A stretch of 64,000 bases of DNA, taken from a virus. The position numbers were made by a program, and so were the translations under genes. The DNA lies in the UHGV virus genome UHGV-0214148, one strand, 5' to 3'. Positions 25,757 to 63,383 of this stretch are shown piece by piece (position 1 is the first letter of the stretch; each line of letters begins with the position of its first letter). The notes under the pieces are model-generated. The model was not told the origin of the DNA and searched no databases. It worked only from the letters and a program-made list of their open reading frames with translations.

Positions 25757-26149
25757 TTATTCGGCAGGACGATTTAAGGTAACGCGTCCGATTAATTCAG
25801 CGTTGTGAAAGAAGTCCACAGCGGTATAGTTACCAACTGATAGCGGATGGATACTAACTGACATTACTTTTGGTTGTTCGCAGGCGATATCCGTCAGGCG
25901 TTGGTAGACTTGTGCACGAGTGTCAGCAATGAGTAATCCCGTACACGTTTCACCACGCACTAAACGATAAACTTGCAGTTTACCGAAACTGCGCATTAAC
26001 GTAGGCGTCTCATCCGGGTTGATAATCGGTGACTCAGGAGCCGGTTCGTAATAGCGGACATCCGAATCACCGAAAGCATAAGTGCCAGTAATTCCGACCG
26101 CACAGAAAACAATGATAGTATAAAGTATAGTTCTGATATTCATTTTCAC
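25757..26149 (-). CDS. small secreted protein (signal peptide)
   Basis: MKMNIRTILYTIIVFCAVGITGTYA signal-like N-terminus; 130 aa. Confidence 0.5.
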   Translation of the reverse strand: MKMNIRTILYTIIVFCAVGITGTYAFGDSDVRYYEPAPESPIINPDETPTLMRSFGKLQVYRLVRGETCTGLLIADTRAQVYQRLTDIACEQPKVMSVSIHPLSVGNYTAVDFFHNAELIGRVTLNRPAE

Positions 26150-26171: not shown

Positions 26172-26633
26172 TTATTTGTTAGGACGGGTGTGTCCACAGT
26201 TCTGGAAGAAAGTTTCAGATAAACGATCGCCTTCTACGGTAAAGTTAGCGGCATCGTTACCATTGATACTCACACTGAAAGTTTTGGCATTACCGATAGC
26301 AATAACGAAAGCAACCCAAGCGTGTTCTGCCTTGTCGCTACCGTCCACGGTAGGGATGTTATAGGTTTTGCCGTTTACGACAATATCCATCGTGTTATCT
26401 TCAGCGTTAGTTGCACCTACGGGTTCCCCGTAATACCAAACCATGCGACCGTAAAATTTGCGATTCACAGTTTCTGTGTCACAGTTGATAGACAGTCCGT
26501 TTCCGGCGGTGTCTTCGATTTCGTAAACTGCCTGGCCAGGGTTTTGTATTTGTTCCCAACTATTGATTGCAGCGTATGCGCTATTGAGGCCGAAAGTTAA
26601 AATGGTTATTAAGAATGTGATAAAGGTTTTCAT
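26172..26633 (-). CDS. small secreted protein (signal peptide)
   Basis: MKTFITFLITILTFGLNSAYA signal-like N-terminus; 153 aa. Confidence 0.5.
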   Translation of the reverse strand: MKTFITFLITILTFGLNSAYAAINSWEQIQNPGQAVYEIEDTAGNGLSINCDTETVNRKFYGRMVWYYGEPVGATNAEDNTMDIVVNGKTYNIPTVDGSDKAEHAWVAFVIAIGNAKTFSVSINGNDAANFTVEGDRLSETFFQNCGHTRPNK

Positions 26634-26679: not shown

Positions 26680-27051
26680 TTAAATAACTGTGTTGGGTAA
26701 TGCTTTAATCTGTGTATAACTATCTCCGATACCTCTTATCATTTCCAGACGCTCTTCTGTAGAAAGGCTTTGGTTAATGTCTTTGTCAAGATTGAACAGT
26801 GTCAAGAGTTTTGCAATTGCAACCGTCAAGTTGTCGGACAGCTCGTTGTTTTTACGCCATTCTTCGTTACGGAAAATAGAGATAAGGTCTTTCGCCTGGC
26901 CTTCAGCGTGCGGTTTGGCTAACTGCGCGTCACGCTGTTCGATAAGGTATGCTTCGTTAGTAAGTAAACGTTTCAGGTTTTCTGGGTTAGTGGCAGCGCG
27001 AGTAACGATCATTAATACAACAAACGGGTCTTTAAATAATTCGTTTTTCAT
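26680..27051 (-). CDS. hypothetical protein
   Basis: 123-aa ORF preceded on its sense strand by the conserved ~76-bp leader repeat. Confidence 0.5.
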   Translation of the reverse strand: MKNELFKDPFVVLMIVTRAATNPENLKRLLTNEAYLIEQRDAQLAKPHAEGQAKDLISIFRNEEWRKNNELSDNLTVAIAKLLTLFNLDKDINQSLSTEERLEMIRGIGDSYTQIKALPNTVI

Positions 27052-27057
27052 CTTTAG

Positions 27058-27133
27058 TTCTCCTAAAATGGTTTTCGTTAAGTGAGAGCTTTTGTACTCT
27101 CACCTAAGTAATATATATCTGAAATTATTTTTA
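27058..27133 (-). repeat. conserved ~76-bp 5' leader cassette, copy 1 (hairpin plus AT-rich 21-bp motif)
   Basis: Nearly identical to 63307-63383; contains the inverted repeat GTGAGAG/CTCTCAC (27082-27103) and TAAGTAATATATATCTGAAAT (27105-27125), directly upstream of the 26680-27051 start. Confidence 0.6.
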
Positions 27134-27144
27134 ATATTAACGAA

Positions 27145-27178
27145 CAAAAAAATAAAAGGTGGGGGTAAACCCCCACCG
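27145..27178 (-). terminator. rho-independent terminator
   Basis: GGTGGGGG-TAAA-CCCCCACC hairpin followed by a T-run on the minus strand after the 27182-27760 stop. Confidence 0.7.
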
Positions 27179-27181
27179 ATG

Positions 27182-27760
27182 TTATACATCGAACCGATAC
27201 TGCCGGGAGTTAATGAGGAATTCGGTATTCAGCTCAATCCATTCGAGTAAATCACCCAACGGTAATCGGTTTGGGTTTTCTAACTCAATAGACGCTACCG
27301 GATAAGAGTTTACTAATTCCGTAATTGTATCAATACCCTCTTGCGTTCCATCGTCTTCTAAGGTGATTGTAAACGGCATATCGGTACGATCCGCATTAGG
27401 ATTGTACAAACTGACTTTTGTTGCTTGGACAAACGCAGACAGGTCGTCACGTATAATGCGTGTATCAGGCGATAGAACTACCCAGAGATGCTGCCCTGGC
27501 TGGAGTTTACGTTTTGCGTAGTTTAAGAAAGGACTTGCCATCAAGTTTTCCAAACCACAACAGATGCTACGTAACTGTATTCCGCGCGGATCTCGGTAAT
27601 CCACATCGAAAATTCCCACAGGTTCATTCGCTGCCTGTTTTATCAGAAAGGCCAATACCGTGTCCGCTCTTTCTGGTAAGGAAAGCTCTATTCCCTCAAG
27701 CTCCCCATCGACGAGATTTTCTAACCAAACGTCTTTTCGCATTTCTATTAATCGGTACAC
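27182..27760 (-). CDS. hypothetical protein
   Basis: 192-aa ORF. Confidence 0.5.
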   Translation of the reverse strand: MYRLIEMRKDVWLENLVDGELEGIELSLPERADTVLAFLIKQAANEPVGIFDVDYRDPRGIQLRSICCGLENLMASPFLNYAKRKLQPGQHLWVVLSPDTRIIRDDLSAFVQATKVSLYNPNADRTDMPFTITLEDDGTQEGIDTITELVNSYPVASIELENPNRLPLGDLLEWIELNTEFLINSRQYRFDV

Positions 27761-27772
27761 GGTTCCACCTCA

Positions 27773-28546
27773 CTAATAATTAAGTTTTACATCGGCAATA
27801 AACAGCAATTGTTTACCATGTTGCTGCACTTCTTTCCAACCTAGTTTCATAGCAGCGTCAACAACATCTAACATGCTGTAACGGGACATCAAAGATTCTG
27901 ATTTTGTTCCTGACATTAAGTAAAGTGGCTCATTAGGGCTACGGTCACGTGCGTCAGGAAGTTCCCGAGAGACTGCTGATCCTTCGGGTACGGTAACAAC
28001 ATGAATCACGGTAAATGGTCTCTTGTGCGTCAGATAGATACGAAACCCAACGTGTTCAGATTCATGAAAGACTTTCTTCACAACCACATCTTTTAGTGTC
28101 GTCTGAACATCAGCCCCAGGTAATATCGTGGTTTCACGTGAAACGAAACAACGGCTATTTTCAATCGTGGAGAAATAATTACGTATCGGCAAACTAGCGT
28201 TATGATCGCGCAGTTTTTTGCTCAGTAGATCGAAGTTCAGTTCTTTAACCTTTTCTAGCCATTCTTTGGCTTGTTGAATGTAATAACTACCAACAGCGCG
28301 ATAAGTTAATACCTTACCTGTGCTCACTTGCCAGAGCTTGATGCTTAGTGAATTTGGCTTATAGCGACGATACTCACCACGCGTATAGTTGATGCGCTCG
28401 TAACGCTCTACACCGTCAACGGGTGCAGTTTCGACCGATTGTAATTGCAGCGTACGATCTAATCTATCGGCAAATAGTAGTGATGTTAGCGGGCCTTCGA
28501 TCATATACGGTTCGGTTTTAAAGATATCGTCTAAATGGACTTTCAT
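27773..28546 (-). CDS. hypothetical protein, member of tandem paralog family (conserved C-terminal GW...QLLF motif)
   Basis: C-terminus LGWKEVQQHGKQLLFIADVKLNY resembles the C-termini of the next upstream ORFs. Confidence 0.5.
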   Translation of the reverse strand: MKVHLDDIFKTEPYMIEGPLTSLLFADRLDRTLQLQSVETAPVDGVERYERINYTRGEYRRYKPNSLSIKLWQVSTGKVLTYRAVGSYYIQQAKEWLEKVKELNFDLLSKKLRDHNASLPIRNYFSTIENSRCFVSRETTILPGADVQTTLKDVVVKKVFHESEHVGFRIYLTHKRPFTVIHVVTVPEGSAVSRELPDARDRSPNEPLYLMSGTKSESLMSRYSMLDVVDAAMKLGWKEVQQHGKQLLFIADVKLNY

Positions 28547-28613
28547 TTCTATTTCCTTCTTAACAAAAGCCGCGACTAAAGCGCGGCAGTTAGAGAAAGT
28601 GTATTTTCACTTA

Positions 28614-29765
28614 TTAGAGGTCAGCAACAAACAACAGCTGACTGCCGTATTTTTGCACGTCAGCCCAACCGTAGTCTTTCCCGATTATAGGTAGATGTAA
28701 AATATCCAGCTTCTCGTCTTTCGCTTTTAGTTTCGCCATTAACGCATTGGACTCCTCAGCACTGAGGAGTAATGCTGGCTCTTTTTCAGTACGTCCTTCT
28801 GCGGTTGGGAAGAAATTGTAATAGCTGCGAGTAGGTAAATCGACAGAAAAACTACGATTGCCTATTCTGGCGATGAACGCAACTCCTTCACAGTTAGCAT
28901 CTACACTGCACGACCATCCCGCCTCCGTTAAAAGACCTTTTAACAGACACCACACTTTAAGTTGGTTCTTAGAAACTGTACGGTAAATAGCAAGATGTTC
29001 AGGAAGTAAATGTACGCCCATAACCACGTTTTCAGATTTCTCGTCAAGCAACTCTGGATGCTGTATCGGGAACAATAATTCAGTGATACCCACGTTATCA
29101 ATTTTGTTAACAAAATCAGTTAATTCATCTTTTAAGGTAGACACTTGATTTTCTCCTTTGTCTTCAATAATCAGGTGGGGTTCGCCGCTAATTAAAATGT
29201 GGTAAACGAGATCGTCAGTAGAACGGTAAGTGAGCTTGATTGCTTTATCACTTAATATTTCGTAGCGGAAGAAACTTTCGTACCAACTTGAGCCGAAATC
29301 GTTTTGTGTAAGCTCCTGCTCAACTTTGATGGTTTTTGCTTCAAAGCCGATTAACTCGCTTAATAACGCGAGTTCTTGTTTAGTTAAAATAGCTACACCG
29401 TGAAAGGGCACTTGTTCAAGCTGAAAACATAACTTAGTGACTTCACCATTTGGGAAGACCTTAAACATAATCTTCCGGTTGCTACTCTTTTCCCTAACAA
29501 CGAGTTTACGGTAATTTAGTCCACAATTTGTGTAAGCCGCGAACTGGTAACCTTCAATTTCTTCATCGGAAGTACAGACATCGACAGGCGCGATAATCTC
29601 ATCGTATTCACTAAGTACACAGCAGCCCAATTTATAACCAAACAACGTATGTTGTAAAAAATAGTCGAGGGTTAAGCTTGGTAGTGGCCAAGCCCGATTA
29701 TAGCATCTGTCCATCAGTTCTTTTAGGTACTTGGCATGTCTTGGTTTAGAAATAATATTTCGCAT
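28614..29765 (-). CDS. hypothetical protein, member of tandem paralog family
   Basis: C-terminus YGWADVQKYGSQLLFVADL. Confidence 0.5.
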   Translation of the reverse strand: MRNIISKPRHAKYLKELMDRCYNRAWPLPSLTLDYFLQHTLFGYKLGCCVLSEYDEIIAPVDVCTSDEEIEGYQFAAYTNCGLNYRKLVVREKSSNRKIMFKVFPNGEVTKLCFQLEQVPFHGVAILTKQELALLSELIGFEAKTIKVEQELTQNDFGSSWYESFFRYEILSDKAIKLTYRSTDDLVYHILISGEPHLIIEDKGENQVSTLKDELTDFVNKIDNVGITELLFPIQHPELLDEKSENVVMGVHLLPEHLAIYRTVSKNQLKVWCLLKGLLTEAGWSCSVDANCEGVAFIARIGNRSFSVDLPTRSYYNFFPTAEGRTEKEPALLLSAEESNALMAKLKAKDEKLDILHLPIIGKDYGWADVQKYGSQLLFVADL

Positions 29766-29796
29766 TTTTACTCTCCTTTAGGGGTTTTTTCGTTAC

Positions 29797-30351
29797 TTAA
29801 GCAGGGCAAGCTAAGAACAACAACTGCTGACCGATTTTACGTACGGTATACCAACCGTGGGCTTTAGCGACCGCGATCAACGTTTCCCAGTCATCAACAT
29901 CACATTGCTCGTTCCGAAGTTTTGTAAAGAGTGCTTCGGCTTCGTCTTGGTTTAATAACTTACCTGGATTATCAGGGGTGGTGCCAGAAGGGGTTGGAAA
30001 GAAATCGTATTGACACGCTAAGAGAAAATCAACCAGATACTTGGTGTTCTCTTTATAAACCAGCGTGGAAGTCTTCCCTTCGTGGAAGAAGCTGCCTGTT
30101 TTCCAAACGCTATCTTTCAGTAAGCTCTGAAGGTAATCTGTAAAGCCCGTTCTAAATGGGATATGCGTTTTACGCGTGATGTTGCGACGCAGCGGGGTTT
30201 CCTCTACAGCTTGTACACTTACCCCTACTATCATCGCACCTGGCTGGATAATGGTATTGGTCAGTACGGTATAAGGACGGACAAAGAAATGTTCGCCTAC
30301 GCCTTTTTCAAGGGTTTGGATAATTTCATTTTTCAGTTCAGTTTGAAACAT
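29797..30351 (-). CDS. hypothetical protein, member of tandem paralog family
   Basis: C-terminus HGWYTVRKIGQQLLFLACPA. Confidence 0.5.
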   Translation of the reverse strand: MFQTELKNEIIQTLEKGVGEHFFVRPYTVLTNTIIQPGAMIVGVSVQAVEETPLRRNITRKTHIPFRTGFTDYLQSLLKDSVWKTGSFFHEGKTSTLVYKENTKYLVDFLLACQYDFFPTPSGTTPDNPGKLLNQDEAEALFTKLRNEQCDVDDWETLIAVAKAHGWYTVRKIGQQLLFLACPA

Positions 30352-30377
30352 GGTATATTCTCCTTTTAGGTTTTTAC

Positions 30378-31112
30378 TTACGCGGTTTTAATTAGCAGCA
30401 GATAGCCCTTCGTAATCTCAGCACAACTCCACCCTTTTACGGCAGCGACACCACGAAGGTAATTTTCTGTGTGATACTGTAAAAACGGATCGTCTGGATT
30501 AATCTCAACTAGGTGAGTGGCTTTAGAAATCGTTTCCGCCTCTGGGATTTGTTTTGTTAAGCCTGATGCAATCAGTTCAATAACGCGGTATCCCTCTAAC
30601 CAAGAAACATAGATACGTAAACCGTATAACTTACCGTTATCTTTTAAGGGATAAAGACTGATGCCCCGGCCGAGCAACGTTAATTCTACATCAGTGGGAA
30701 GGTTTTCTACATGCTTGATTAACCCTACCCCATGTCTAAACAGTGGGAAGTAAGAGTATAGCGTCAGCATACTGCTTCCTCCAATAAACGTAACATCGGA
30801 AACGGTAGGCGTGCTGGCAATGAGGCGAACATGTTCCGCTACGACTTCAAGTTCGGCGTCACTGATCAATTTATAGAATAAAATGACGCTGGTTTCGGTA
30901 TTAAGAACAAAGAAGAACCGGTTGGCGTGACTGCTTATCGTGTATTCGTCAACCATGCTGTCGATAACGTCACTGTCTGGATAATCTTCGGGTTTAATTG
31001 TTTCAGCAGAGACTAACTTAGCAGGTTGGGATTGCCCTATTAGTTCATTAACCACCGTAGAAGAAAGTTCTAAACTGGTGTTAGTAAAGATATCGTCTAA
31101 TAATTCACTCAT
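30378..31112 (-). CDS. hypothetical protein, possible distant member of the same paralog family
   Basis: C-terminus KGWSCAEITKGYLLLIKTA is similar to the GW...QLLF motif. Confidence 0.45.
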   Translation of the reverse strand: MSELLDDIFTNTSLELSSTVVNELIGQSQPAKLVSAETIKPEDYPDSDVIDSMVDEYTISSHANRFFFVLNTETSVILFYKLISDAELEVVAEHVRLIASTPTVSDVTFIGGSSMLTLYSYFPLFRHGVGLIKHVENLPTDVELTLLGRGISLYPLKDNGKLYGLRIYVSWLEGYRVIELIASGLTKQIPEAETISKATHLVEINPDDPFLQYHTENYLRGVAAVKGWSCAEITKGYLLLIKTA

Positions 31113-31487
31113 GATTTACTCGCTAATCTCAATAAAGGGGAGTCTATTATTATGGATTGTAAAAGAGGTATAAGGAAGTCACTACGTTCCTCTGGGAAGA
31201 GTATGTCGGTATACTACGTATACCTCCGCTATTTATATCCGTATACATAATGCCCCCTACCCCCTACCGGTATCCCGAGTAGCAGAATAAAGGGGCAGAC
31301 TGTAAAATTTTAGTACCTGTTATCGGAAGGTACTAAATGGAGTGTAGTCTTTAAGCCGTTTGAGCAGCTCATTGAGACTTTCTTTCTTTTTAGTAGACAT
31401 GATCTGTCTCCCCAAATGGTTTAATCAATCCGTTTCGAATGAAACGTGTCCGTAGGGGCTGAACTGGCACTTCAGCCCCTATTCACT

Positions 31488-31508
31488 TAAGTAATATATA
31501 TCTGAAAT
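31488..31508 (+). promoter_or_regulatory. third copy of 21-bp AT-rich motif TAAGTAATATATATCTGAAAT, upstream of 31534 start
   Basis: Exact 21-bp match to the motif inside the two leader repeats, 25 bp upstream of a plus-strand ATG; preceded by the hairpin GGGGCTGAA/TTCAGCCCC. Confidence 0.4.
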
Positions 31509-31533: not shown

Positions 31534-32499
31534 ATGGAGAAATCCAGTGTTGATTTTTTCTCAATTGGTATCGTCGCGGAAGACAAACCCCGTGGTACAG
31601 ATCGGGTAAAAGTGATACCAATTGAAACCAACTTTGCTAACCCTACCGTGGTGCAATCTGTTTCTTCAGCAACTGAAAAGACGCATGAAACGTCTGGCGC
31701 AACAGATAACCTAACCATTAAGACGGGTAACACGATAACAGCAAAGTGGTGGAAGTTTAACTCCAACCGAATTAATTCCCCTGACGTTAAACGAGAAGAC
31801 TACGTTATCTTGTTACGTTTGGGGAAAACCGATATTTATTTTTGGATTGATCTGAACTTCGCTAACGTTAAGCGATTAGAAGATGCGGTTTATGCGTGGT
31901 CGGCTGACCCTGAAAACCAAATGGCGGATGACTTGTCCAATGCGTATGTGTTGAACGTTTCGACGATTGACAAACATATCACGCTAAGAACAAGTATGGT
32001 GAACGGTGAGAAAGCGGCGTGGTTATTTCAGTTTGATAATGCAAATGGCACGTGGCAGTGTGTTGACCACAAAGGGAATAAGTATTACATTAACTCGGTG
32101 GAAGATGATCTCGGGTTTGAGAATGCGATGCTCTCAAAAGTGAACATCAACAAAGAAGATGCGTTCATTTATTCAAAGCGTTCTATTAACCTGGAAACGA
32201 AAACAATTAATGAAAAATGCGAAGTTCGCAATACGGAAGCAGCGAAATCCGTTACGTTTAAAACGCAAACCTGGTTAACGGAAGCAGGGAGTTCGACAAC
32301 ATTTAAAACGCCGAACTTTAAACAAGAAGGGAATGAAGCGATGTTCACCGGTAATCTGGAAATCGCTAAGAACTTCAAATACGGCGGTACGGGTGAAGGC
32401 GTGGGTGTCTTTACGGTTAAAGATGCCGTTATTTCTGGTATTACCTTTAGCGTTCACATTCACCAAGGTAAACATGGCCCGACATCACCTCCGCAATAA
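31534..32499 (+). CDS. hypothetical protein (possible virion protein)
   Basis: 321-aa ORF with SD AAGGAA; Thr/Asn-rich beta-like composition. Confidence 0.5.
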   Translation: MEKSSVDFFSIGIVAEDKPRGTDRVKVIPIETNFANPTVVQSVSSATEKTHETSGATDNLTIKTGNTITAKWWKFNSNRINSPDVKREDYVILLRLGKTDIYFWIDLNFANVKRLEDAVYAWSADPENQMADDLSNAYVLNVSTIDKHITLRTSMVNGEKAAWLFQFDNANGTWQCVDHKGNKYYINSVEDDLGFENAMLSKVNINKEDAFIYSKRSINLETKTINEKCEVRNTEAAKSVTFKTQTWLTEAGSSTTFKTPNFKQEGNEAMFTGNLEIAKNFKYGGTGEGVGVFTVKDAVISGITFSVHIHQGKHGPTSPPQ

Positions 32500-32704
32500 T
32501 TCCCCTTTTTCTTACGTTGTTTTTATATATTGTGACCTGACGTTGGTAAAACTTTTTATCAACACTTTTCTTAAACCCATCGTTTAGTTAAGCAGGCCAC
32601 TTTTTCGCGCACTCTACTCCTCCCTACGGGGAGGAGCTATCTTATGCTTCGGTTGTAACACACGTCGGTCTTAGACCACTAACCTTTTGAAATGGAGAGC
32701 TGTT

Positions 32705-32914
32705 ATGTCTATTAAAGAGTTCTCTTCTGCTGAGCATATTCCAGAAGAGTTTAAGAAAATCGGTAACGTCAGCGCTTTCGGCGATACCGTTGATCATGTA
32801 ACTGGTAAACTGGCTGCTGAAGCCGAAAAAATTGGCGGCGACGCATTCAAAGTTATCGGTATTTCCGGCAACAACAAACTGCACGGTAACGCGATTGTCT
32901 ACAAAAAAGACTAA
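32705..32914 (+). CDS. DUF1471 (BhsA/YdgH/McbA-like) domain protein lacking a signal peptide
   Basis: 69 aa; EEFKKIGNVSAFGDTVDHVTGKLAAEAEKIGGDAFKVIGISGNNKLHGNAIVYKK matches the enterobacterial DUF1471 pattern. Start at the ATG preceded by GGAGAG. Confidence 0.6.
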   Translation: MSIKEFSSAEHIPEEFKKIGNVSAFGDTVDHVTGKLAAEAEKIGGDAFKVIGISGNNKLHGNAIVYKKD

Positions 32915-63306: not shown

Positions 63307-63383
63307 TTCTCCTAAAATGGTTTTTCGTTAAGTGAGAGCTTTTGTACCCTCACCTAAGTAATATATATCTGAAATTATTTTTA
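63307..63383 (-). repeat. conserved ~76-bp 5' leader cassette, copy 2
   Basis: Near-identical to 27058-27133 (one substitution in the hairpin arm, one extra T), directly upstream of the 62794-63300 start. Confidence 0.6.

Follow-up and report, generated by a model that had tools for sequence, protein, structure and literature searches.

A hypervariable cassette of four diverged tandem paralogs ending in a common C-terminal domain in a large phage

The internal proteins of phage T4 and the hyperplastic-region genes of large lytic phages form small families of diverged paralogs in recombination-prone regions; they join a short constant element to variable bodies, and some members counter host defences. 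The constant element of the T4 internal proteins is an N-terminal capsid-targeting sequence of about 10 amino acids (aa), and the proteins are packaged in the head. Bro-N/KilA-N phage proteins and poxvirus ankyrin-PRANC proteins carry a constant docking domain with many partner domains, occur as several paralogs per genome and are shuffled between viruses. Nearest to the locus described here is a gene family of SPN3US-like jumbo phages that PHROGs already lists with no function assigned and whose members are annotated as hypothetical proteins. The 64-kb stretch of virus genome UHGV-0214148 that was analysed as a whole (the window) contains four consecutive minus-strand open reading frames (ORFs), the array, which are diverged paralogs of one family with a common C-terminal domain and constitute a hypervariable accessory-gene cassette in a large phage. 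Sequence comparison identifies the array as a lineage-specific tandem expansion of the SPN3US gp175-family slot gene. New to this analysis are the tandem expansion, the boundaries of the domain together with the three architectures in which it occurs, the closer kinship within the pairs A/D and B/C, the polymorphisms (D present or absent, breakpoints at the linker) and the link to an early-promoter motif.

The four array genes, labelled A to D and transcribed in the order D-C-B-A, are:

27773-28546, minus strand: A257 (A), 257 aa, conserved member of the array
28614-29765, minus strand: B383 (B), 383 aa, multi-domain paralog
29797-30351, minus strand: C184 (C), 184 aa, most variable member, its C-terminal 109 aa in common with B383
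30378-31112, minus strand: D244 (D), 244 aa, first array gene, distant full-length paralog of A257

An original prediction, made from the DNA letters, gave these positions and sizes correctly and quoted the C-terminal tails exactly. It described tandem paralogs with a common tail of about 20 aa and differing N-terminal regions, and took a variable module on a constant anchor to be typical of rapidly diversifying host-interaction or anti-defence families. Pairwise BLASTP aligns A with B (35% identity over 65 aa, E=2e-9), B with C (32% over 108 aa, E=2e-13) and A with C (31% over 64 aa, E=2.5e-5), while D gives no significant BLASTP match to A, B or C, its best (E=0.078) lying away from the tail. 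When family profiles built from relatives' proteins are compared by hhalign, A and B match with P=5e-10 over 66 columns (A 188-253, B 311-383) and B and C with P=8e-12 over 109 columns; the A-C comparison is likewise significant, and the B-D and C-D comparisons are not. A and D can be aligned from end to end: the score over 228 columns is 36.3, whereas 30 column-shuffled controls reach at most 19.9 and a reversed control 12 (z of about 9, computed from the 30 shuffle scores). Restricted to the N-terminal parts, the A-D comparison still yields 28.5, with shuffled controls reaching no more than 22.2 (z=5.8). The C-terminal 69 residues of D match a profile of non-D modules only with P=1.9e-6 and a score of 32.9 (z=13; 40 column shuffles, mean 9.2, maximum 14.4). 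In a multiple alignment, P, GW and L are invariant and stand in register across the four proteins and their homologs of other genera.

Because of these BLASTP and hhalign statistics and the invariant residues in register, the four genes are true paralogs. The profile comparison that had been proposed, based on hidden Markov models, thus upholds the C-terminal similarity as statistically significant (A-B, B-C, A-C, A-D, and the D module against the non-D profile). Two points need correction: the shared region extends over about 65-70 aa (109 aa for B-C), and the N-terminal regions differ as described except in A and D, which are collinear throughout. No similarity was found between the N-termini of B or C and A/D, no internal repeats in B or D, and no further copy of the module in other ORFs of the window. 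B383 contains 9 cysteines, which is unusual relative to neighbouring proteins, and no homolog of its N-terminal half (residues 1-200) could be detected outside this lineage. The array proteins are acidic, and no signal peptide or transmembrane segment is apparent by eye, a prediction tool not having been run; they are predicted to be soluble, mostly acidic, cytoplasmic proteins.

The constant C-terminal domain follows the consensus P[DE]xxDR[ST]xx[DE]PxYLMS...GWxxVxxxGxQLLF and is located in the four proteins as follows:

27788-27985, minus strand: module of A, residues about 188-253 (A-B hhalign; PHROG matches at 193-251)
28617-28835, minus strand: module of B, residues 311-383 (hhalign and AlphaFold model); beta 331-334, alpha 336-349, alpha 355-364, beta 367-373, beta 376-381
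29800-30027, minus strand: module of C, residues about 109-184
30381-30578, minus strand: module of D, residues about 179-244 (alignment, AlphaFold model and hhalign); beta 199-203, alpha 210-213, alpha 218-225, beta 230-234, beta 237-241

The AlphaFold 2 (AF2) model of B383 has a mean predicted local distance difference test (pLDDT) score of 78.8, with 85-94 in the C-terminal half and a low-confidence linker at residues 200-208; that of D244 reaches pLDDT 91.4 and a predicted template modelling score (pTM) of 0.86. Both models end in three strands, a linker with the invariant proline and then a beta-alpha-alpha-beta-beta unit (three strands at 285-309 followed by the module at 331-381 in B, and 151-181 followed by 199-241 in D), so that the proposed structure prediction yields the same C-terminal topology twice. 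Profile alignments and models together bear out the idea of a variable module on a constant anchor, repeated in tandem.

An exhaustive search of 1.84 billion representative proteins with the module profile returned 49 matches at E<=1e-3, among which the A-, B-, C- and D-type representatives, themselves included in the profile, score between 6.6e-23 and 7.6e-12; a word-indexed search with the module alignment returned 7 fragments only. One group of matches consists of the slot genes of SPN3US-like phages. A second comprises stand-alone proteins of 72-150 aa, barely more than the module itself (consensus PDxxDR[ST]xN[DE]PxYLMS...GWxEVxxxGKQLLF), and a third bears the module at the N-terminus (e.g. 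P0145, P0146 and PhiEaH1 gp105). The domain is thus found alone, C-terminally and N-terminally, across at least three lineages of jumbo phages as well as in smaller phages. Genes with stand-alone or N-terminal modules lie in non-structural neighbourhoods, such as between an N6/N4 DNA methyltransferase and a Bro-N gene on a smaller phage-like contig with helix-turn-helix (HTH) genes nearby, next to a T4-type RNA ligase and an AAA ATPase, or after PhoH in PhiEaH1-like phages. In Pfam, none of the four proteins reaches or approaches a gathering threshold, no match recurs consistently across 44 family members, and models such as Bro-N, KilA-N and ANT do not match. PDB sequences searched with profiles of the module, the D/A family, the B family and the 44 members returned nothing; the B383 model has no Foldseek match in the PDB at E<=1e-3 and matches only the same jumbo-phage family in BFVD. 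The region of about 65-70 aa is thus a new small domain with no Pfam family and no structural analogue found, the fold search having covered the B383 model.

Could the domain be a degenerate winged-helix nucleic-acid binder, the proteins being early transcription or DNA-associated regulators with variable sensor/effector domains? The order beta-alpha-alpha-beta-beta is that of the winged-helix core, as in TBPIP/Hop2 (PF07106) and Mnd1 (PF03962), which likewise ends in a beta-hairpin "wing"; the motif G[WK]x..x.GKQ..[FY] in the module recalls the Hop2/Mnd1 wing. Residues 36-89 of the stand-alone protein P0134 span nearly the whole of TBPIP/Hop2 (E=0.0087) and of Mnd1 (E=0.12), P0133 weakly matches another winged-HTH family, and one stand-alone copy adjoins the Bro-N and HTH genes. 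However, the Pfam matches are sub-threshold (P0134 scores 16.4 bits against TBPIP, whose cut-off is 22.8, and does so as 1 of 44 members), and about 0.4 such matches are expected by chance when 44 proteins are scanned. The modules are acidic (isoelectric point 4.6-5.7), the inter-helix loop varies in length by 0-30 residues, unlike that of a DNA-binding helix-turn-helix, and the PDB-sequence profile searches returned no winged-helix protein. The first helix of the alpha1-beta1-alpha2-alpha3-beta2-beta3 winged-helix topology is not evident in the models, and short versions of the module have no room for a third helix. The winged helix is a weak lead, nothing more, and a regulatory role built on it would be unlikely.

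By sequence, the window belongs to an SPN3US/phiEaH2-like jumbo phage. A 420-aa neighbour protein is 76-81% identical to those of the Erwinia phages Asesino and phiEaH2 and the Salmonella phage SPN3US. Window DNA has no match longer than about 60 nucleotides (nt) to cultured phages, and tblastn with B383 found none among them. Identical or related proteins are encoded on 222-227-kb contigs of Salmonella, E. coli and Shigella assemblies, and the homologs number 76 for the D family (48-100% identity) and 17 clusters for the B family. Two relatives are complete circular "plasmids", L020 (E. coli 98232, a urine isolate, NZ_CP173450.1, 221,873 bp) and L021 (Enterobacter ludwigii, a gull isolate, NZ_CP134650.1, 222,441 bp). 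The lineage has no cultured representative in the phage collection. The circular replicons of about 222 kb and the many contigs suggest either a carrier or pseudolysogenic state or a lytic jumbo phage contaminating cultures.

The array stands in a conserved gene frame, baseplate gene (plus strand), slot gene or genes, and gp177 homolog, which is found in the window and in SPN3US, phiEaH2, Asesino, Phobos, Caitlin, SPAsTU and SNUABM_29. Its two borders in the window are:

31534-32499, plus strand: baseplate assembly gene, 321-aa protein, PHROG 3216, divergent from the array
27182-27760, minus strand: E192, 12 nt after A, homolog of SPN3US gp177, PHROG 20879 (unknown function)

In the cultured relatives examined, the slot divergent from the baseplate gene is occupied by one module-ending gene whose N-terminal part is unrelated, changing with every genus, and whose size differs, a pattern that spans Seoulvirus, Erskinevirus, Derbicusvirus and Machinavirus:

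SPN3US gp175 (SPN3US_0175): 412 aa
phiEaH2 gp097 / Asesino gp195: 223 aa
Phobos gp176: 319 aa
Caitlin gp184: 277 aa
SPAsTU slot gene: 333 aa
pEa_SNUABM_29 slot gene: 423 aa

Searches by tblastn with two different module-bearing queries found exactly one module locus per genome in 50 and 55 phage records. Four array genes are present in the window and in the relatives L004, L007 and L020, whereas L005, L006 and L021 have three, D being missing. The comparative genomics called for at the outset therefore does reveal copy-number variation, with one copy in cultured relatives and three or four here; as the single-copy trait of the slot family is absent, the window holds an expanded variant of that family. 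The module of A is the array module nearest to the single-copy slot genes (SPN3US gp175, phiEaH2 gp097, Phobos gp176). By type, the order D-C-B-A corresponds to A, B, B, A, a pattern that does not amount to a two-gene unit simply duplicated.

D, C and B differ sharply from their surroundings in how they vary. Amino-acid identities of relatives' proteins to those of the window are:

Flanking genes (420-aa, baseplate, E192, H130): 74-97%
A: 77-93%
D: 44-48%
C: 42-79%
B: 43-71%

Among phages with flank identities of 85-100%, the identity falls to 44-51% in D, 41-79% in C and 43-71% in B, and C184 ranges from 41 to 87% across relatives. L004 and L005 have flanks 98-100% identical, with synonymous divergence (dS) of 0.06-0.21, and nevertheless differ in C (41% identity, dS about 3, saturated) and in B (61%). 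L020 and L021, also with flanks 98-100% identical, are 82% identical in C, and D is present in one and absent from the other. B is a mosaic: between the window and L004 its N-terminal half is 76-96% and its C-terminal half 30-56% identical, while between L004 and L005 the corresponding values are 16-56% and 80-96%. The breakpoint, near column 210, coincides with the low-confidence linker of the AF2 model, so that the N-half (residues 1-200) and the C-half (210-383) recombine independently. Because dS in the array is saturated where flank dS is about 0.1, and because B breaks at its linker, the divergence stems from exchange of old alleles and half-genes. The locus is a recombination and diversity hot spot; its variation arises mainly by recombination, in which old alleles, half-genes and whole genes are exchanged under constraint that is somewhat relaxed or diversifying, and is not rapid evolution in place. 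The ratio of non-synonymous to synonymous rates (dN/dS) of C is 0.25-0.45 where measurable, against 0.03-0.1 in the flanks. Gene-wide positive selection was considered and rejected, dN/dS being below 1 throughout. The description "rapidly diversifying" accordingly holds for D, C and B and fails for A, which is as conserved as its neighbours, and positive selection is not demonstrable.

Such variation might also be expected of fast-drifting accessory ORFans that have no specific host target, in which the domain is a folding or oligomerisation nucleus and change comes from relaxed constraint and recombination in a dispensable region. The dN/dS values, above those of the flanks and below 1, would fit, as would the loss of D without other changes, the orphan N-terminal parts with no homologs outside the lineage, and the varying presence or copy number of the neighbours F123 and YfjT-like G153. 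Against it, all four frames are intact across many diverged genomes (the 76 D-family homologs and 17 B-family clusters), D is modelled as very well folded, the slot gene is kept in 55 of 55 cultured relatives detected, and the domain is conserved in the several phage lineages named above. On balance, drift of this kind is an improbable explanation of the array.

A motif upstream of the array suggests early expression. The expression-related features are:

31491-31507, minus strand: phiKZ-type early-promoter motif TTTCAGATATATATTAC, at the head of the operon
27108-27124, 31491-31507 and 63358-63374, all minus strand: exact copies of TTTCAGATATATATTAC(TTA)
27105-27121, 31488-31504 and 63355-63371, all minus strand: copies of the 17-nt core CAGATATATATTACTTA
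31454-31480, minus strand: strong hairpin directly downstream of the motif (-21.1 kcal/mol, z=-3.5), which may form a stem-loop at the 5' end of the transcript
31320-31400, minus strand: small unannotated ORF of 26 aa, MSTKKKESLNELLKRLKDYTPFSTFR, with GGAG upstream
31170-31294, minus strand: nearly invariant non-coding block of about 125 nt, directly upstream of the first array gene (D or C)
28569-28587, minus strand: terminator-like hairpin between B and A
27158-27177, minus strand: strong intrinsic-terminator-like hairpin with T-run after E192, ending the unit; the next promoter motif follows at 27108-27124

The core CAGATATATATTACTTA has 3 exact copies in the window against 0.19 expected by chance, and the pattern TTTYARRNNTATATTAC likewise has 3 exact matches. 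Each copy of TTTCAGATATATATTAC(TTA) heads a minus-strand gene block and has a hairpin after it; over 80 nt, the 27.1-kb and 63.3-kb copies are 96% identical. The published early-promoter motifs are TATATTAC in phiKZ and …WTTTRARR_BTATATTACDWHDGTG in 201phi2-1 (PMC7058600 Table 2), and such motifs lie around position -10 of the early operons that the virion RNA polymerase transcribes (PMC7598289). The window motif matches this phiKZ/201phi2-1 consensus in both the TATATTAC core and the TTTYARR upstream element (PMC7058600 Table 2; PMC7598289). Conservation of the motif extends across genera (SPN3US, phiEaH2, Asesino, Phobos, Caitlin, SPAsTU, SNUABM_29), and in Phobos it stands 86 nt upstream of the module gene. 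A sigma-70 promoter scan gave nothing above chance. E192 is probably co-transcribed with the array.

Relatives' versions of the 26-codon ORF, MSTEKKSGLDEVIELFKRYNPAIPR and MLAEQKDGIEEVVRLFRHYSPYLPR, keep its length and residue pattern with poorly conserved DNA, and the ORF stands where SPN3US-like phages have the unrelated 105-aa gp174. The invariant block is 95% identical over about 150 nt in L004-L007 and partly kept upstream of SPN3US gp174 and Asesino gp194, while the gene that follows it has just 42-50% identity or is another gene altogether (D or C). The block is a likely leader or regulatory region, and possibly a second promoter or recombination anchor; its predicted RNA fold is not exceptional (z=-1.9). 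In the 420-bp gap upstream of D, no remnant of SPN3US gp174 was found, and neither a tRNA nor an Rfam family.

Hypervariability, mosaicism, and gene gain and loss are also typical of receptor-binding proteins, and the slot always adjoins and diverges from the baseplate assembly gene, on whose far side lie tail and baseplate genes. The array proteins might thus be accessory proteins of the virion or baseplate, acting as host-range factors or adaptors, with the C-terminal domain seated on the baseplate and the N-terminal parts in contact with the host surface. In tail fibres the conserved anchor is normally N-terminal, whereas here the conserved part is C-terminal, and the B and D models are compact globular alpha/beta proteins with no fibre-like match (fold search with the B383 model). 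Slot genes of Phobos and Caitlin are annotated as hypothetical and their neighbours as structural. The array proteins match none of the PHROG structural categories, and a weak Baseplate_wedge match (E=0.041) appears in 1 of 44 family members in Pfam. The virion mass spectrometry (MS) table of SPN3US runs from gp171 and gp173 to gp193 (PMC5105663 supplement); as gp175 is missing from it, this protein was not detected in purified virions, in which its neighbours gp171 and gp173 were detected. The core-gene table of the same phage gives gp175 as common to PhiEaH2 and CR5, not phiKZ (PMC5105663 supplement). An operon headed by a phiKZ-type early-promoter motif rather than a late signal, and the location of stand-alone modules, which unrelated phages carry in early or non-structural regions, also speak against membership of the virion, which is distinctly unlikely. 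Finally, the idea that the ORFs are unrelated and resemble each other by chance or composition, to which the failure of D in BLASTP and of B-D and C-D in hhalign might lend itself, is next to impossible and already refuted by the significant A-B, B-C and A-C alignments, the match of the D module to an independent profile, the A-D collinearity in full and in the N-terminal parts, the residues in register and the identical predicted topology.

The preferred reading, to which an even chance may be given, is that the array proteins are early, intracellular, non-virion factors that combine a common docking or association domain with exchangeable specificity domains for variable host targets. The virion RNA polymerase would transcribe the operon as soon as infection begins, and the products of the operon would act inside the cell and not in the virion. 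The constant domain could dock onto one shared partner or mediate self-association, while the variable N-terminal domains would give specificity for strain-variable host targets, for example in defence or takeover, and several diverged copies would broaden the range of hosts or defences handled. The points behind a host-interaction role are all indirect, namely the early-promoter motif, the non-detection of SPN3US gp175 in virions and the non-structural contexts of stand-alone copies. Because the locus is a hot spot and probably switched on early, its products are candidate host-interaction or counter-defence proteins, a designation that is reasonable but unproven.

Several observations weigh against an early counter-defence role. 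The proteins have no similarity to known anti-defence, defence, toxin or regulator families in Pfam, PADLOC or NCBIfam; the only matches do not rise above noise (DpdF, E=0.024, for B; Msr-family ABC-F, E=0.0053, for A; FusC, E=0.046, for P0122), two NCBIfam matches being far below their cut-offs and PADLOC having no curated cut-off. Absence from one virion proteome is compatible with a low-copy virion component, and the slot gene adjoins baseplate genes. Exact in the window and in Phobos, the motif is degenerate in some close relatives and was not found upstream of gp174/gp175 in SPN3US or phiEaH2, so early timing may not be general. About 370 nt with the hairpin, the small ORF and the invariant block separate the motif from D, and other promoters are possible. 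Finally, dN/dS never exceeds 1. The SPN3US papers do not discuss gp175 of SPN3US, every mention of "gp175" there referring to the phiKZ protease, and transposon sequencing (Tn-seq) studies cover phiKZ and PCH45 only.

A more specific proposal, rather unlikely as it stands, extends the preferred reading. The domain of about 65-70 aa would be an undescribed phage "docking" domain, possibly a degenerate winged helix, that delivers swappable N-terminal specificity domains to one host or phage machine early in infection. The D-C-B-A array, flanked by the invariant leader block and the conserved A, would be a recombination cassette through which co-circulating jumbo phages trade counter-defence or takeover specificities domain by domain.

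Genes on either side of the array also deserve mention. Beyond E192, F123 (26680-27051) is present in the window, L005 and L006 and absent from L004 and L007. G153 (26172-26633) is YfjT-like (PF27224), has an apparent N-terminal signal peptide by reading and is duplicated in L007, and H130 (25757-26149) starts with a hydrophobic leader. As these small neighbours vary in content, the variable region reaches beyond the four paralogs. On the other side lies one further gene of note:

32687-32914, plus strand: YdgH/BhsA-like gene (DUF1471, PF07338), between the baseplate gene and the 420-aa tail-associated gene

This member of a host-type stress/biofilm family inside a structural block is kept in all SPN3US-like relatives.

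If the preferred reading is correct, the array offers a compact, well-delimited set of candidates for proteins that interact with the host or counter its defences early in infection, in a jumbo-phage lineage found widely in Enterobacteriaceae assemblies of clinical and animal origin, yet without a cultured representative. It would also add a new small domain reused alone, C-terminally and N-terminally across phage lineages. Natural variants, such as D present or absent between near-identical replicons of about 222 kb and B halves swapped at the linker, give testable host-range hypotheses. Should the functional inference fail, the locus is still a clear case of recombination-driven modular variation in a giant phage, useful although unsurprising to specialists.

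Compared with known systems, the array resembles Bro-N/KilA-N and ankyrin-PRANC proteins by analogy only, in having a constant domain with many partner domains in multiple copies; there is no sequence relationship to Bro-N/KilA-N, whose Pfam models do not match. With T4 internal proteins it has in common diverged paralogs, a recombination-prone setting and a constant element with variable bodies. It differs in that the constant part is a folded C-terminal domain and that the SPN3US ortholog was not found in the virion. The closest likeness is to the slot family, whose PHROGs 26772, 33648, 24489 and 18480 (SPN3US gp175, phiEaH2 gp097, Phobos gp176 and Caitlin gp184) are all of "unknown function". 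A and B match the C-termini of these PHROGs, the C-terminal module giving E values from 5.5e-11 to 1e-4 (BLASTP of A against gp175, 1e-10), and both the syntenic slot divergent from the baseplate assembly gene and the variable N-terminus on a constant C-terminus are held in common. No counterpart of the N-terminal part of A/D, B or C is detectable in the slot family, and where its other members stand as a single gene, the lineage of the window has three or four in tandem.

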